In this document: in pieces, positions 41,836-61,794 of the stretch
How the letters are laid out: the number at the start of each line of letters is the position of its first letter
How positions within the stretch are numbered: the first letter of the stretch is position 1
Assembly (NCBI GenBank): GCA_034420555.1
Contig: DAOULF010000060.1
Location: 58 to 64,057, forward strand
Source of the DNA: Dehalococcoidia bacterium
Lineage (GTDB): Bacteria; Chloroflexota; Dehalococcoidia; Lucifugimonadales; UBA1123
Reading direction: 5' to 3'
Length of the DNA stretch: 64,000 nucleotides
Position numbers and translations under genes: made by a program
Notes under the pieces: model-generated
What the model saw: only the letters and a program-made list of their open reading frames with translations
The model's database searches: none
What the model was told of the DNA's origin: nothing

Positions 41836-43209
41836 TTATGAATTAAGAATCAGGGATTGGAGGGCGGACGATACCGCCGCGTCCTGGGCGGGTAGAACGG
41901 TTCTGGTGTCCAGGAGGACGTGATCGTCTTCTATTCTGCCGATGATAGGTTGGTCATTCCGGCGCAGGCGCGTGAGAACGCTTTCCGCGCTCTGTCCCGT
42001 TAATCCACAGTCAACTTGAAGGGCGACCGACTCTATCGTCTCTCCTGGCAGGCTGCCCCCGCCAATCGCGGCGCGTGATCCGACTATCTCAGCGCAGTCT
42101 CCAGCGCTTTCTTTCCAGGCCGCCGCCCGCGCTCTCAGTTCGTCCAGGGGCGCGGAGATCATCCTCCATATCGGGACCTTCTCGGTCGGGTCGTCGCGTA
42201 TGTAGTGGAGCATCGTGGCCGATAGAGACGCCATGCTCATCTTGTCTATCCTGACTGCCCTCGCAAGCGGGTGCGCCGATACGATGTCAACATACTCGCG
42301 TTTGCCCACGATGATGCCCGCCTGCGGTCCACCCAGCAGCTTGTCGCCCGAGAAGAAGCCGAGCGCGACACCGGCGCGGACGCTCTCCTGCGGGCGCGGC
42401 TCCCAGGCCAGTCCGTAGGGGCGGGTGTCGAGCAGGCAGCCGCTGCCCAAGTCGTGCAGAACCGGGACGCCGTTCCTGTCGCCCACCTCCACCAGTTCGT
42501 CGGTCGTTGGCGCGTGGGTGAAGCCCATTACGCGGAAGTTGGAGGCGTGAACGGACAGGATCGCGCCGGTGTTCTTGTTGATCGCGGCCTCAAAGTCGCG
42601 CGCGTAGGTGCGGTTGGTCGTGCCGACCTCGACGAGGGTCGCGCCGCTCTGCCGTAGCACGTCGGGTATGCGGAAGCCGCCGCCTATCTCCACAGCCTCG
42701 CCGCGTGAGACTATGACCTCCTTGCCTGCCGCTATCGCGGCCAGTCCGAGCATGACCGCCGAGGCGTTGTTGTTGACCACAAGCGCGGCCTCCGCGCCCG
42801 TCGCCTGGCATACCAGTCGGGATATGTGCGCCTGCCGGGATCCGCGCCTGCCGGACTCCAGGTCGAACTCCAGGTCGCTGTAGCCGGACGCGGCGACCGA
42901 GGCCGCCGCGATGCTTTCGTCGCTGAGAGGGGCGCGACCGAGGTTGGTGTGGAGTATGACGCCCGTCGCGTTGATGACGGTCTCAGGCCAGCTTCTCCAC
43001 TGCGATGCGGCGCGCTCCGAGACGGATTCTGCCACGGTCTCCACTTGAGGAGGATCATCGCCCGCCGCGACGTTAAGCCTGGCAGTGGCGAGTTCCTCCC
43101 TGACTATCTCCACTATTGACTCGTGGGAGTATTTGCCCACCAGATCGGTTACTTCCCGGCACCTCAGCACTTCGTTCACCGATGGAATATCTCTGAATCT
43201 GGATGTCAT
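41836..43209 (-). CDS. selA: L-seryl-tRNA(Sec) selenium transferase
   Basis: 457 aa. Motifs are IPSVNEVL, VINATGVILHTNLGRAPL and FSGDKLLGGPQAGIIVG (PLP-Lys motif, closely matching E. coli SelA). Confidence 0.9.
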   Translation of the reverse strand: MTSRFRDIPSVNEVLRCREVTDLVGKYSHESIVEIVREELATARLNVAAGDDPPQVETVAESVSERAASQWRSWPETVINATGVILHTNLGRAPLSDESIAAASVAASGYSDLEFDLESGRRGSRQAHISRLVCQATGAEAALVVNNNASAVMLGLAAIAAGKEVIVSRGEAVEIGGGFRIPDVLRQSGATLVEVGTTNRTYARDFEAAINKNTGAILSVHASNFRVMGFTHAPTTDELVEVGDRNGVPVLHDLGSGCLLDTRPYGLAWEPRPQESVRAGVALGFFSGDKLLGGPQAGIIVGKREYVDIVSAHPLARAVRIDKMSMASLSATMLHYIRDDPTEKVPIWRMISAPLDELRARAAAWKESAGDCAEIVGSRAAIGGGSLPGETIESVALQVDCGLTGQSAESVLTRLRRNDQPIIGRIEDDHVLLDTRTVLPAQDAAVSSALQSLILNS

Positions 43210-56958: not shown

Positions 56959-57026
56959 GCGCGTGCTACAATTGTTCATGCTGACTAGGCTGTGTTGATA
57001 TTTCTCGTCATTTGTATGTTGAAAAT

Positions 57027-57087
57027 CCCCTCTCCCTCTGGGAGAGGGCTAGAGTCTGCCCCGTACAGCGATACGGGGGTGAGGGCA
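57027..57087 (-). repeat. REP-like hairpin element (CCCTCTCCC/GGGAGAGGG type, inverted orientation)
   Basis: cccctctccctctgggagagggctagagtctgccccgtacagcgatacgggggtgagggc, ending 20 nt before the desulfurase ATG. Confidence 0.65.
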
Positions 57088-57107
57088 AACTGGAACAGGT
57101 CAACCCC

Positions 57108-58298
57108 ATGGCTTTGAGCGACAGCGTAATCTATATGGACAACGCGGCGACCACACCCGTAAGGCCGGAGGTGGTCCGCGCGATGCTGCCGTACTTCACG
57201 GAATACTTCGGCAACGCCTCCAGCATATACGAGCTCGCGCAGCAGAGCAGGGGAGTCCTGGACGATTCCAGGCGCGCGGTGGCAAAGTCGCTCGGCTGCC
57301 GCTCCAGCGAGATAGTATTCACATCCGGCGGAACGGAGTCGGACAACGCCGCCCTCAAGGGCGTCGCCTTCGCTCTCAGGAATGTGGGCAACCACATCAT
57401 CACTAGCGCCATCGAGCACCATGCGGTCCTGCACACGTGCCACCAGCTTGAGCAATTCGGCTTCGACGTTACCTATCTTTCCGTGGATGAAGACGGCCTG
57501 GTCAACCCCGGCGATGTGGCCGCCGCTGTTACGGATCGAACTATACTGGCCAGCGTCATGCTTGCGAACAACGAGATAGGCACCATCCAGCCGCTGTCCG
57601 AGATAGCGGCCGCGCTCCAGCGCGAAGCCCAGCGCTTTGGCAGAAAGATGTACTTGCACACCGACGCGGTCCAGGCGGTAGGTGCGATAGAAGTCAACGT
57701 CCGCAAACTGGGGGTGGACCTGCTCAGCCTCTCCGCGCACAAGTTTGGGGGTCCCAAAGGCGCGGGCGCGCTGTACATCAAGCGCGGAACGCCCTTCGAG
57801 CCGCTCATCATGGGCGGAGGCCAGGAGCGGGACAGGCGCTCAGGCACCGAAAACCTGCCGGGCGTGGTGGGACTGGCCGAAGCGATGCGGCTGGCTGAAG
57901 CCGAACGCGATGAGGTGACTCCGCGCATAATGAGGCTGAGGGACCGTATTATTCACGGGATCCTGGAGCGAATGGACGGCGTTCGGCTGAACGGCCATCC
58001 CACCCGGAGGCTGCCCAACAATGTCAATGTGTCGTTCGAAAACGTGGAAGGCGAGCCCATTCTGCTCGGACTCGACTTTGCTGGAATCTGCGCATCGAGC
58101 GGTTCCGCCTGTTCCGCCGCTTCACTTGAGCCTTCCCATGTTCTCACGGCGATTGGCCTCTCCGCGGATCTGGCGCAGGGCAGCCTGCGTATTACCGTTG
58201 GGAAAGATAATACGGACGAAGATGTGGAATATCTGCTGGATACGCTGACTGACTTGGTAACCAGGCTGCGGGCGATGCCCTCATTGTCCGGCGTATAG
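57108..58298 (+). CDS. Cysteine desulfurase (NifS/IscS class V aminotransferase)
   Basis: From ATG 57108: [30 protein letters not shown] (PLP Lys) and SSGSACSA (catalytic Cys loop). Confidence 0.9.
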
Positions 58299-58494
58299 AT
58301 CATAGATATTGCTATGATTATGATGGGACATTGGGCCGCTCTCTATTGCGCTACCAGGGTCGGTCTCTGCAATAATCTCCAAGCGTAAACGGATACAATA
58401 AATCAATTCGAGACGCTAGATGCTAATGCAATTTGACGCTTCAAAGAAAATCGGACGGATAACGCAGTACAAGCGGGGAGCATTCCCGCTTGGC

Positions 58495-59058
58495 ATGGCC
58501 AGGAAGAGATGGGTGGCCGCGCTCATGGCGCTCATGGCCCTGGTAATTCTAGGATGCTCGAGCGACCCCGATGTCGTCGGAGTTCGCGGACGAAGTATCG
58601 AGATACACGCCAAGAGGCCGGTCGTAGCCGAGAAACTCTCTTACGAGGCTCCGGGAGACCAGTATTACGTCTTCAGGCCCAAGGCATCCAACCGCCAGAT
58701 GGCCGCGGTCTGCGTCACTGTGGTGAACCGCACCAGCACCGTAATGCCGCTGGAAGTAAACCCGGAGGCCGCGAGGCTCGGAAACCGCAGGGGCGAGAGA
58801 ATCTCGGCCTCCGACCCGTTCGAGCGTTCCTCTATCGTGGACGCGACGGACGAGGCTTCGATTCTCAGGGATCCAGGAGATAATGAAGACCTGAGCAGAT
58901 GTACCCAGCTGCTCTGGGGCCAGATTCAGCTTGACCGGGATTTCCAGGTTTCGGGCTGGATGCTGTTCGACGTGCCCAAGGGTCTGACGCTCGGCACGTT
59001 CTGGTGGGACGAAGTGGACGAGGTGGTCCTGGACTACGTGGAATACCGCAGACGCTGA
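58495..59058 (+). CDS. Lipoprotein, DUF4352-like
   Basis: It has a lipobox (MALVILGC-SS) after ATG 58495 and a beta-rich body (VTVVNRTSTVMPLEV...VSGWMLFDVPKG). The family call is weak. Confidence 0.5.
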   Translation: MARKRWVAALMALMALVILGCSSDPDVVGVRGRSIEIHAKRPVVAEKLSYEAPGDQYYVFRPKASNRQMAAVCVTVVNRTSTVMPLEVNPEAARLGNRRGERISASDPFERSSIVDATDEASILRDPGDNEDLSRCTQLLWGQIQLDRDFQVSGWMLFDVPKGLTLGTFWWDEVDEVVLDYVEYRRR

Positions 59059-59182: not shown

Positions 59183-59264
59183 CCCGCGTCTCGAACCTGA
59201 CATTAGTGCGCCGCATCTAATATAATGAAGTTAAACCCAAACCCTAATCAGATTGGAGCGAAAC

Positions 59265-59594
59265 ATGGCCAATACGGTTGAAATCACGGATGCGACATTC
59301 CAGGATGAAGTGGTCAACTCCGATGTCCCCGTCGTCATTGACTTCTGGGCGGAGTGGTGCGGCCCCTGCAAGATGATCGCGCCCATAGTCGAGGAACTCG
59401 CGGGCGAGTACGAAGGCAAGGTCAAGTTCGCCAAGATGGACGTTGACTCCAACCCGAGCACTCCAATGCAGTTCGGTATCCGGGGAATCCCCACTCTGCT
59501 GATATTCAACGGCGGAGAGAACCCCGTTGACCAGGTGGTCGGCGCGGTTCCCAAGTCCATGCTCAAGAAGAGGGTGGACGAAGCCATAGCCTAG
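59265..59594 (+). CDS. trxA: Thioredoxin
   Basis: From ATG 59265: VEITDATFQDEVVNSDVPVVIDFWAEWCGPCKMIAPIVEELAGEY...GIRGIPTLLIF. Confidence 0.9.
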   Translation: MANTVEITDATFQDEVVNSDVPVVIDFWAEWCGPCKMIAPIVEELAGEYEGKVKFAKMDVDSNPSTPMQFGIRGIPTLLIFNGGENPVDQVVGAVPKSMLKKRVDEAIA

Positions 59595-59626: not shown

Positions 59627-59703
59627 TCCCTCTCCCTCAAGGGCCCACAAGGGTAGAAAAAAGGCCCCTCTCCCCTTGGGAGAGGGCTAGTTAGGGTGAG
59701 GGT
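59627..59703 (-). repeat. Composite REP-like element (two CCCTCTCCC-type hairpin halves)
   Basis: ctccctctccctcaagggcccacaagggtagaaaaaaggcccctctccccttgggagagggctagttagggtgaggg, ending 14 nt before tRNA-Sec. Confidence 0.65.
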
Positions 59704-59716
59704 AAATATCCCCCTT

Positions 59717-59815
59717 GGGAGCGGATAGGGCCTGGTGGCTCTCGCGGTCTTCAAAACCGTCCGGCGGCAACCCAGCGGTTGGCGCGGTGGGTTCGACTCC
59801 CTCTCGCTCCCGCCA
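59717..59815 (+). tRNA. selC: tRNA-Sec (anticodon UCA), CCA encoded
   Basis: 99 nt. It has an 8-bp acceptor stem (GGGAGCGG/TCGCTCCC), a 6-bp D-stem with a 4-nt loop (AGGGCC-TGGT-GGCTCT), anticodon loop CTTCAAA, a long variable arm (GGCAACC-CAGC-GGTTGGC), T-loop TTCGACT, discriminator G and CCA. This is the bacterial 8/5 tRNA-Sec architecture. Confidence 0.85.
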
Positions 59816-59831
59816 GGACATACACAAAGAA

Positions 59832-59864
59832 AGATGGGGCGAATTTTCGCCCCATCTTCTTTTT
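59832..59864. terminator. Bidirectional rho-independent terminator between tRNA-Sec and the convergent selenoprotein gene
   Basis: AGATGGGGCGAA-tt-TTCGCCCCATCT (12-bp perfect stem) is flanked by AAAGAAAG upstream and TCTTTTT downstream. Confidence 0.8.
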
Positions 59865-59911
59865 CAGGAGCGTCAGCCTCGCGGCGATAACGACCACCGC
59901 AACGGCGGGCG

Positions 59912-60454
59912 CTATCTCTGGGCGAGCAGAATGCTCAGCACATCCGGCGCGGCTTTCGTTGCCAGGTCTCTCAATTGCTCCATAGTCAGGCTGCCGAGCG
60001 GGTGGGGAACCACCACGTATGGATAGTCGGGAACGCCGCCCAGGTTCGCCATTGCGTCTGCGCTCGTGATGAACGGCTCAGTGCAAATCACCGCCGTGGG
60101 AACGCCGCGCCGCTCGAGGGTAAGTCCGTCGTGCACACTGCACGATGAGCAGGACCCTCAATCGCCCGACGAGGTGATCACCACGTCGCACTTGTCCACA
60201 ATCTCGTCAATTATGTCCTCCGGGCAGGGGCGGGACGCGTTCATCTTGTTGCGCTCCACCACGCCGCCGAAGTCATACCTGTCGGCCAGAACTTCGTGAA
60301 GGGCCATAAGCATCTCCACCGAGTTCATCTTGCCGTTCGCCAGCAGCCCGATGGTAACGCCGTCAAGCGTCTTCGGCCTGTCCGCGACAACTCCGTCTGC
60401 CGGCAGCGGAGCCACCGTAGGGTCCAGTACCGCTATTCCTGTCGAACCGTTCAT
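59912..60454 (-). CDS. UGSC-motif selenoprotein (in-frame UGA at 60160-60158)
   Basis: Tracked ORFs 60158-60454 and 59912-60136 are in the same frame and are joined by a single TGA: ...DKCDVVITSSGD-U-GSCSSCSVHDGLTLERRGVPTAVICTEPF.... The joined product is 180 aa. The U-G-S-C motif defines the 'UGSC family (seleno)protein'. Confidence 0.8.
60129..60145 (-). promoter_or_regulatory. Candidate bacterial SECIS hairpin for the UGSC gene
   Basis: On the mRNA, 12 nt after the UGA: UCGUGCA-GUG-UGCACGA. This is a 7-bp stem, or a 6-bp stem with loop AGUGU carrying the G/U expected in SECIS apical loops. Confidence 0.45.
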
Positions 60455-60559
60455 ACTTCACCTCTCTTCTGTTGATGCTGTAAGAAATAAGTCGGGCAAG
60501 CACCATCTTGTTCAGCTTGCGATCATCCTGTCTGTGATAAGGGTGAAGGCTCAGCAGTC

Positions 60560-61600
60560 CTATTCTATCAGCTTCGTTACGGATCTGGACCCCGTTCCGC
60601 CGCTCCATAGCGGAATTACGCAAGAGAATGCCCCTGCGTGTCCGCCCGCGACCATAACCGTGATCGCTTCAGGGGACACTACTGAGTGCAGATAGTCGTC
60701 CTCAGACCCCACCGAGTCGCGTATGAAGCGTCCCGCGGACCTCCATTCCGAGATCTTCCGACGCGCGGCCTCGTGGAGGAACTCTTTAACCCGCTCCTTC
60801 GACCAGCCCGCCCGTCTCAGGTGACCGATGTGCTCGGGACACAGGACGACGACGACCTCACCCTGGTTCAAGCCTACGCCTCCCGCGAACATCGCCTCCC
60901 GGAACGAAATCAGTATCTCTTCGGGCCTCTGAAATGCGTGGTTGTCAACCTGTATGCTGGACAGCCCCGCGAAGACTGAGACAGTGCTGTCCTCGGACGA
61001 GAATCCCCTGTCGGTCTGAAGCGGTTCCCAGGGAGACACGTCCTCATCCTCAGCGATGCACCAGGTGTACTTGCCGGGATGGCCCTGGGTCGCCTTGTCT
61101 ATCTCGCCCGACACCGACCCGGTGGCGTTTATGACGACCAGGCGTATGGCGCGTCCAATCGTGGCGTTCGCGCGGTGTCCCGGCCCGAAGACGCTTATGC
61201 CAGAATTCAGCCCGACTTCCCGCGCTATCGGCCCGTTCACGATCGCGAGGACCGCGGAACCCTGGGTGCTGGCCGTAACCGCGTGCAGGTTGAACTGCGG
61301 TTCGCACATAGCTTCCACGGCGGCAAGCACGATCCTGAAATACTCCGGTCTGCACCCCGCCATGACAGAATTGACGGCGACCTTCTCAGCCGTGATGACT
61401 CTGCCCTTGGTCGGCTCCGTGCCCAAAATGTCCGAAGGACTCCTGCCCGCCGCGTCCAGAAACTCGGCCACAAGCTCCGGCGTCGGCGGAATAATTGGCA
61501 GGCCGTCCGTCCAGCCCCTCTCTATATACTCCTCGACCACCTCGTTCCAGTCGTCGAACTGCATTTGATTCGAACTCAGTTGCGCGTTAGCCATGTTCAC
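60560..61600 (-). CDS. Conserved hypothetical protein (346 aa), upstream and co-directional with the UGSC selenoprotein gene
   Basis: Long ORF with native-like composition (WNEVVEEYIERGWTDGLPIIPPTPELVAEFL...VMAGCRPEYF...GPGHRANATIGRAIRLV). I do not recognise a family. Confidence 0.6.
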   Translation of the reverse strand: MNMANAQLSSNQMQFDDWNEVVEEYIERGWTDGLPIIPPTPELVAEFLDAAGRSPSDILGTEPTKGRVITAEKVAVNSVMAGCRPEYFRIVLAAVEAMCEPQFNLHAVTASTQGSAVLAIVNGPIAREVGLNSGISVFGPGHRANATIGRAIRLVVINATGSVSGEIDKATQGHPGKYTWCIAEDEDVSPWEPLQTDRGFSSEDSTVSVFAGLSSIQVDNHAFQRPEEILISFREAMFAGGVGLNQGEVVVVLCPEHIGHLRRAGWSKERVKEFLHEAARRKISEWRSAGRFIRDSVGSEDDYLHSVVSPEAITVMVAGGHAGAFSCVIPLWSGGTGSRSVTKLIE

Positions 61601-61617
61601 CTTTCCAGTAGATAATT

Positions 61618-61657
61618 TCCCTCTCCCTCGATGGAAGAGGGCCAGGGTGATGGTGAC
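61618..61657 (-). repeat. REP-like hairpin element (CCCTCTCCC type, inverted orientation)
   Basis: ttccctctccctcgatggaagagggccagggtgatggtga. Confidence 0.65.
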
Positions 61658-61794
61658 TTGGGAATGGCACGATTATATGAACAGGGGTGTGTTTGGTCAA
61701 CTGCTGATGATCTGAAAACGAACATTCGTATCCTGTGTTAGAATGCCCCGCAACAAGGTAAGCGAGTCAAGAATGGGTAATTAGGAGGCGTACG

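Follow-up and report, generated by a model that had tools for sequence, protein, structure and literature searches.

A 64,000-nt stretch of DNA (the window) from a sponge-associated member of the Dehalococcoidia carries a gene which, on comparative evidence, is a genuine selenocysteine-encoding member of the catalogued UGSC family. It is paired with a gene for a second protein, which we call the partner. With high confidence we regard as the best overall explanation that a single UGSC selenoprotein gene is translated by selenocysteine (Sec) decoding into a redox domain, and that this domain and the partner form one enzyme. The reading of UGA as Sec has strong comparative evidence behind it, while the enzymology is what we infer.

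A UGSC gene split by an in-frame UGA codon

The preliminary description of this DNA had joined two ORFs, in the same frame and on the same strand and separated by a single TGA, into one selenoprotein gene. As read from the window sequence, positions 60454 to 59912 of the minus strand indeed form one gene of 180 codons, which runs from an ATG at 60454 to a TAG at 59914-59912. The ATG is preceded, at a distance of about 6 nt, by a Shine-Dalgarno-like GAGGTG. The only internal stop in its frame is the TGA at 60160-60158 (codon 99), and the joined product of 180 residues reads ...VVITSSGD-U-GSCSSCSVHDG.... As the frame is open from 60157 onwards, the two ORFs are indeed parted by one TGA. The second ORF thus follows in frame after the TGA, while its start at 60136 is merely the first GTG chosen by the ORF lister.

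The family assignment made at that time is borne out as well. Scored against family models with Cys written for Sec, the joined product exceeds the curated cutoffs of NF041046, "UGSC family (seleno)protein" (147.1 bits, cutoff 125, model positions 2-146 of 147), and of PF24696, "UGSC" (194.1 bits, cutoff 25, model positions 2-171 of 172). The literature agrees with the earlier statement that the family was known from marine metagenome surveys without an assigned function, and describes UGSC as a marine and aquatic selenoprotein of unknown function (PMC1976440, PMC2398784, PMC13188914). Compared to the "UGSC-containing protein" of Zhang and Gladyshev (2007/2008), there is no essential difference: the U-G-S-C motif stands where the family has it, Sec forms can be aligned with Cys forms, and the window gene, being from a sponge-associated member of the Dehalococcoidia, also has an aquatic or marine source. 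It is an ordinary member of the family. The sequencing runs that best match the window are sponge metagenomes, and orthologues with up to 95% protein identity are already present in public MAGs, the closest being chromosomes of Dehalococcoidia MAGs. As publications on the family date back to 2007-2008 and curated models exist, the finding is already known and the UGSC call itself is not novel. What goes beyond the preliminary description is the predicted fold, a weak likeness to GrdB and PrdB, the conserved and sometimes fused partner, and a two-protein reductase as the most likely mechanism. The features of the locus are listed in Table 1.

Table 1. Features of the UGSC locus and of the Sec decoding genes in the window.
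Feature	Position	Strand	Remarks
selA, L-seryl-tRNA(Sec) selenium transferase	41836..43209	-	TIGR00474, 532 bits (cutoff 268)
Thioredoxin gene	59253..59594	+	TIGR01068, 124.6 bits (cutoff 96.8)
tRNA-Sec (selC), anticodon UCA	59717..59815	+	ARAGORN; Rfam RF01852, 66.2 bits (gathering score 47)
Bidirectional intrinsic terminator (predicted)	59830..59859	.	12-13-bp stem, T-runs on both strands; between UGSC gene and tRNA-Sec
UGSC family selenoprotein gene	59912..60454	-	180 codons, Sec at codon 99; matches NF041046 and PF24696 over full length
SECIS hairpin (putative)	60129..60145	-	7-bp stem, loop G-U-N, 12 nt downstream of UGA
UGA selenocysteine codon	60158..60160	-	TGA in 83 of 83 scored related loci and in the window; Cys aligned in full-length homologues
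Partner gene, 346 aa, uncharacterised	60560..61600	-	Upstream of UGSC gene, co-transcribed
Sigma-70-like promoter candidate, TTGACC-17-TATAAT	61672..61700	-	11 of 12 consensus matches; consensus match only

Conservation of the UGA codon among relatives

A scan of species-representative genomes revealed more than 500 relatives, and the best 80 loci are nearly all from Dehalococcoidia, SAR202 and other Chloroflexota. The aligned codon is TGA in all 83 scored related loci (83/83). In these, GD-U-GSCSSCS(V/M/L)HD is invariant, while the proteins diverge to about 50% identity. The half of the protein that follows the UGA is 52-96% identical across loci and is conserved at least as well as the N-terminal half.

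The preliminary description had suggested to look for homologues with Cys or Sec aligned at this position, and the protein search found them. One class of relatives consists of uninterrupted proteins of 176-192 aa with an aligned Cys (GD-C-GSC or GD-C-AGC), one of which bears the name "UGSC family (seleno)protein". The other class consists of gene calls of about 99 aa which end exactly at ...SSGD and which evidently are Sec forms cut at the UGA.

Public gene callers routinely split Sec-form UGSC genes into a 99-aa piece and a piece of 46 to 74 aa. This was seen for database proteins P0001-P0031 and for loci L001 and L004.

The preliminary description had itself considered as a contrary outcome that the TGA is a real stop and that the region encodes two independent proteins; a dead split gene would be another form of this reading. 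Automatic gene callers do partition the region in this way, but to both family models the sequence on either side of the TGA is a single domain. A real stop is also difficult to reconcile with a TGA that is retained in 83 of 83 loci over about 50% protein divergence, with coding conservation downstream that equals or surpasses that upstream, with uninterrupted homologues that have an aligned Cys, and with the presence of a conserved SECIS, of selC and of selA. We give this reading only a minute chance, and consider it effectively refuted by the conservation across the TGA, the Cys homologues, the SECIS and the selC/selA pair.

Sec decoding genes and the genetic code

The gene for tRNA-Sec is convergent with the UGSC gene at a distance of about 100 nt, and selA is about 17 kb away from selC. 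Neither selB nor selD was found among the ten window ORFs checked. The arrangement of selC and UGSC is common to about 20 of the closest related loci and is not seen in distant ones, so the adjacency is a lineage-specific synteny and no general feature of the family. The call of the UGSC gene indicates that this sponge-associated member of the Dehalococcoidia uses selenocysteine.

It was also considered that the TGA might be read as Trp or Gly under an altered genetic code. Such a reading could appeal to P0001, the closest full-length database homologue, which has been deposited with W at the Sec position (GDWGSCSS). This W is best explained as an annotation artefact, with the TGA having been read with the wrong code. 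Against an altered code stands that TGA terminates 4 of the 19 confident window genes (argS, HGPRT, rarA and a 1131-aa ORF), which shows that the code is not reassigned. Furthermore, the tRNA with a UCA anticodon is a tRNA-Sec according to both ARAGORN and Rfam, and the homologues carry Cys rather than Trp. Translation of the TGA as Trp or Gly is next to impossible in our view, and Sec remains the preferred reading.

The window was also scanned for other ORFs split by TGA, which is less rigorous than a selenoproteome search. The scan returned no second candidate and only out-of-frame noise of the kind that GC-rich DNA produces.

The putative SECIS element

In bacteria, the prototype of a SECIS element is that of E. 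coli fdhF, a stem-loop that lies in coding sequence a short way past the UGA; its upper hairpin of 17 nt is located about 11-12 nt downstream and has G and U in the apical loop. The preliminary description had pointed to a hairpin with G and U in the loop 12 nt after the UGA of the window gene. We find it to be a perfect 7-bp stem with a 3-nt GU-N loop (UCGUGCA-GUG-UGCACGA, 17 nt), which lies within codons 104-109 (S-C-S-V-H-D) plus two bases at the start of codon 110. The hairpin resembles the fdhF element in being an in-coding stem-loop soon after the UGA, in its 17-nt hairpin and in the G and U of its loop. It differs in its very short, perfect 7-bp stem with only a 3-nt loop, in that no bulged U is evident, and in that no conserved lower stem was found in the consensus fold of 80 sequences.

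The folding energy of the hairpin is not beyond chance when compared to shuffles of this GC-rich stretch (z = -0.44), so the case for a SECIS rests on the comparison with relatives. RNAalifold recovered the 7-bp hairpin from 80 distinct sequences without a single broken pair. Compensatory double changes are found in two loci, G-C to A-U in L083 and C-G to U-A in L067, and there is one G-U change in the stem (L027). The loop begins with GU in every one of the 80 distinct sequences. Codon usage points in the same direction: third-position entropy is 0-0.38 bits for the hairpin codons (+5 to +10 relative to Sec) compared to 1.1-1.8 bits at equally invariant flanking residues (Gly-2, Gly+1, Ser+2, Ser+4, Pro+20, Val+23). 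For example, five different codons serve Ser+4, but 79 of the 80 sequences have TCG for Ser+5 and all 80 have AGT for Ser+7.

The hairpin was retained in every Sec-type orthologue examined, and no such hairpin was found at the equivalent place in Cys-form UGSC genes. We regard it as a putative SECIS element that is conserved as RNA. With the questions about the stop codon, the alignment of Cys and Sec, and the hairpin all answered, a selenoprotein is favoured.

Many contigs from four metagenome or metatranscriptome runs match at 60125-60167, exactly the UGA-SECIS module, and differ from one another in their flanks. In runs X3 and X9, a "joint" 60144/61048 is seen in RNA contigs at high depth, with only 20 nt matching on one side. 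Rather than a real deletion, these are probably foreign contigs that have the conserved UGA-SECIS 40-mer in common.

Predicted fold and active-site residues

The preliminary description had left it open whether the fold is thioredoxin-like or Rossmann-like. The AlphaFold model that we analysed is that of P0001, which is 55% identical to the window protein and has W at the Sec position. The model (pLDDT 90.7, pTM 0.85) has five beta-alpha units, with the Sec position at the N-terminus of the third helix, directly after the strand CDVVIT. Foldseek against the PDB returned weak neighbours (TM 0.4-0.5), all of them flavodoxin/Rossmann-like, and neither a thioredoxin-fold protein nor a structure of GrdB or PrdB is among the top 50 PDB fold matches of the model. 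A sequence search of the PDB with the UGSC profile gave nothing meaningful. The fold is thus predicted to be flavodoxin/Rossmann-like and not thioredoxin-like, and the thioredoxin-like fold suggested in the 2008 survey (PMC2398784) is not supported by the five beta-alpha units and the flavodoxin-like neighbours.

That survey's proposal amounts to a stand-alone thiol/selenol oxidoreductase with a thioredoxin fold, which would need no dedicated partner and would serve as a general antioxidant or disulfide reductase. In its favour, redox proteins typically have a UxxC where a helix begins, and a thioredoxin gene is nearby. The confident model of the 55%-identical homologue argues against the fold, however, and the tight pairing and the fusions with the 346-aa protein, described below, favour a dedicated two-component enzyme. 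We consider a stand-alone thioredoxin-fold enzyme quite improbable.

The residues U/C99, C102 and C89 are conserved throughout the family. Cys105 is conserved in Sec forms and is replaced by Ser or Ala in many Cys forms. In the Sec forms the SECIS stem includes the codon for Cys105, so that constraints on RNA and protein overlap and the conservation of this residue is not purely protein-driven. Of the extra Cys residues after the Sec, which the preliminary description had taken to suggest a redox or metal centre, only Cys102, the UxxC residue, is found family-wide.

This bears on another view of the site, according to which U-x-x-C-x-x-C and Cys89 bind a metal or an iron-sulfur cluster, so that the protein would handle metal or transfer electrons instead of being a Se/S redox catalyst. 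Sec forms do have three closely spaced chalcogen ligands plus the invariant Cys89, and a flavodoxin-like fold is also that of electron carriers. As Cys105 is not family-wide, a three-ligand metal site is less plausible: where it is Ser or Ala, only two universal motif ligands are left, and in Sec forms the SECIS stem also constrains its codon. We hold a metal site to be improbable and continue with Sec99 and Cys102 as a redox pair.

The partner gene

The listed start of the partner is GTG 61600. An ATG at 61594, which is preceded by GGAAAGG, would give a protein of 344 aa and is probably the true start, as partner homologues have 343-344 aa. The partner had no match in Pfam and NCBIfam at E up to 10, and a sequence search of the PDB gave nothing meaningful. 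Foldseek with a model of the partner returned no structural neighbour (best TM below 0.3), and hhalign of the partner against the alignment of GrdB/PrdB sequences was negative. The partner family is very large and comprises over 7,900 clusters at 90% identity.

The two genes of the window are co-transcribed, as seen in a sponge metatranscriptome contig of 1,813 nt, for which contaminating DNA is possible. The contig is about 97% identical, covers 59851-61639 and spans the partner and UGSC genes, continuing through the UGA. It starts just downstream of the promoter match and ends at 59851, inside the terminator, so that its limits coincide with the predicted ends of the operon.

We analysed 81 non-redundant loci for which the upstream flank is available. 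The partner is directly upstream and on the same strand in 72 of them; in four others it is about 0.5 kb upstream, in three it is 2-3.5 kb off and on the other strand, and in two it is absent within 6 kb. The pairing extends to Cys-form UGSC genes from Actinobacteria, which are accompanied by a partner homologue (37-47% identity, E 1e-57 to 1e-102). In these pairs the ORFs overlap, and the gene order is reversed in two of the three cases. An exhaustive search with the UGSC profile resulted in 4,371 clusters at 50% identity. It included nine long hits (485-657 aa), eight of which are UGSC-partner fusions and are 34-46% identical to the partner from the window. A "UGSC/Unknown_1" fusion has been reported before (PMC2398784), and as we found the fusions independently it is likely that Unknown_1 is the partner protein.

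Pairing across phyla, rearranged gene order and gene fusions together are strong evidence that UGSC and the partner act as a unit, and we are quite confident that the two proteins work together.

In long-read metagenome contig L004 (1529-2504), the partner appears to be split into ORFs of 124 aa and 179 aa, and either a frameshift or an error of assembly may lie behind the split.

Possible relation to GrdB and PrdB

Five NCBIfam models for reductase selenoprotein B (glycine, sarcosine, betaine and proline) match overlapping stretches within residues 73-161, around the Sec. All scores fall well short of the family cutoffs: the best match is TIGR01917 with E 1e-5 and 24.6 bits (cutoff 602), and TIGR04483 reaches 14.1 bits (cutoff 300). 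The PrdB model is matched by 9 of 14 UGSC members. An hhalign comparison of UGSC with GrdB/PrdB-family sequences from the GOS data of the 2008 supplement, six of nine of which match PF07355, places Sec on Sec with a pairwise E of 9e-4 and a probability of only 23%. Beyond the Sec, the match extends over the next helix and the G-[IV]-P-T strand. When UGSC members were scanned with PF07355 (GRDB), there was no match at E <= 1. This model stops immediately ahead of the Sec, at position 345 of 347, and so cannot detect similarity in the Sec region. Presumably, the UGA had cut short the proteins of its seed.

The residues U99-G-S-C102-S-S-C105 of the window protein form a U-x-x-C-x-x-C motif, which is the documented motif of GrdB, GrdF and GrdH (PMC6778437, PMC13188914). 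In UGSC as in GrdB/GrdF/GrdH and PrdB, a hydrophobic strand (DVV...) leads directly into U-x-x-C(-x-x-C) with the Sec, and a helix and a G-[IV]-P-T-[AV] strand come next. The HMM matches, weak as they are, are consistent in register. Both also work with a second protein encoded alongside, which for UGSC is suggested by the gene pairing. Unlike GrdB and PrdB, UGSC has only about 180 aa and is without the N-terminal GRDB domain of about 250-320 residues, and its partner is unrelated to their subunits. Its hosts are Chloroflexota and Actinobacteria rather than amino-acid-fermenting Firmicutes. There is no GrdA, GrdC, GrdE or PrdA near the UGSC gene, the neighbours being the 346-aa partner, HGPRT, thioredoxin and NifS. 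Due to the low scores, the missing GRDB domain and the lack of these genes nearby, UGSC is not a member of the GrdB/PrdB family.

A relationship restricted to the Sec region is suggestive but unproven on this comparison of profiles, and we consider homology to GrdB/PrdB about as probable as its absence. By analogy, the UGSC-partner enzyme might carry out a GrdB-like reductive bond cleavage, which we regard as possible and yet rather unlikely. If true, there would be a widespread and unrecognised selenoenzyme of two subunits, sometimes fused, in marine Chloroflexota, Actinobacteria and other aquatic bacteria, and the Sec domain of UGSC would be a minimal, distant relative of the Sec domain of GrdB/PrdB.

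Proposed mechanism

In bacterial Sec decoding, SelB carries Sec-tRNA(Sec). For the window gene, SelB would bind to the 17-nt hairpin downstream of UGA99, so that selenocysteine would be inserted instead of translation being terminated. The product would be a small flavodoxin/Rossmann-like alpha/beta domain with Sec99 and Cys102 at the N-terminus of a helix, and this U-x-x-C pair is expected to cycle between the selenol/thiol and the selenenylsulfide state.

The linkage to the partner and the fusions make a two-protein reductase the most likely mechanism, in which the partner and UGSC would most likely form a complex and act as one enzyme. On the model of GrdB/PrdB, substrate binding would fall to the partner, the selenolate would then attack or reduce the substrate, and Cys102 would resolve the adduct. 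A dithiol, possibly that of the neighbouring thioredoxin, might re-reduce the Se-S bond. As the partner resembles neither a GrdE/PrdA-type subunit nor any other known protein, the chemistry is unconstrained.

Significance

The call of the UGSC gene is routine, and restores as one gene what standard gene finders report as two. UGSC ranks with the most abundant selenoprotein families of aquatic environments, with 255 sequences in GOS and the clusters counted above, and its function is still unassigned nearly twenty years after the family was first noted. A partner that looks obligate, the fusions, the predicted non-thioredoxin fold and the GrdB/PrdB-like Sec site provide a testable handle on this function.

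Neighbourhood of the locus

Next to selC are a NifS-like cysteine desulfurase (57012-58298), an unannotated 212-aa ORF (58420-59058) and the thioredoxin gene (59253-59594). This block is syntenic in the TARA locus L001, and the adjacency of the thioredoxin gene was seen only in close relatives of the window. A role of the NifS/thioredoxin block in selenium mobilisation or in re-reduction of the selenoprotein is possible.

REP-like palindromes of the form CCCTCTCCC-N3-GGGAGAGGG occur in two perfect copies (57028-57048 and 59666-59686), where none is expected by chance. The 5' leader of the partner gene contains a variant, CCCTCTTCC-ATCGA-GGGAGAGGG, at about 61619-61646. Four metagenome or metatranscriptome runs have contigs that accumulate on 61617-61658 and differ in their flanks, which indicates that the REP-like element is widespread.
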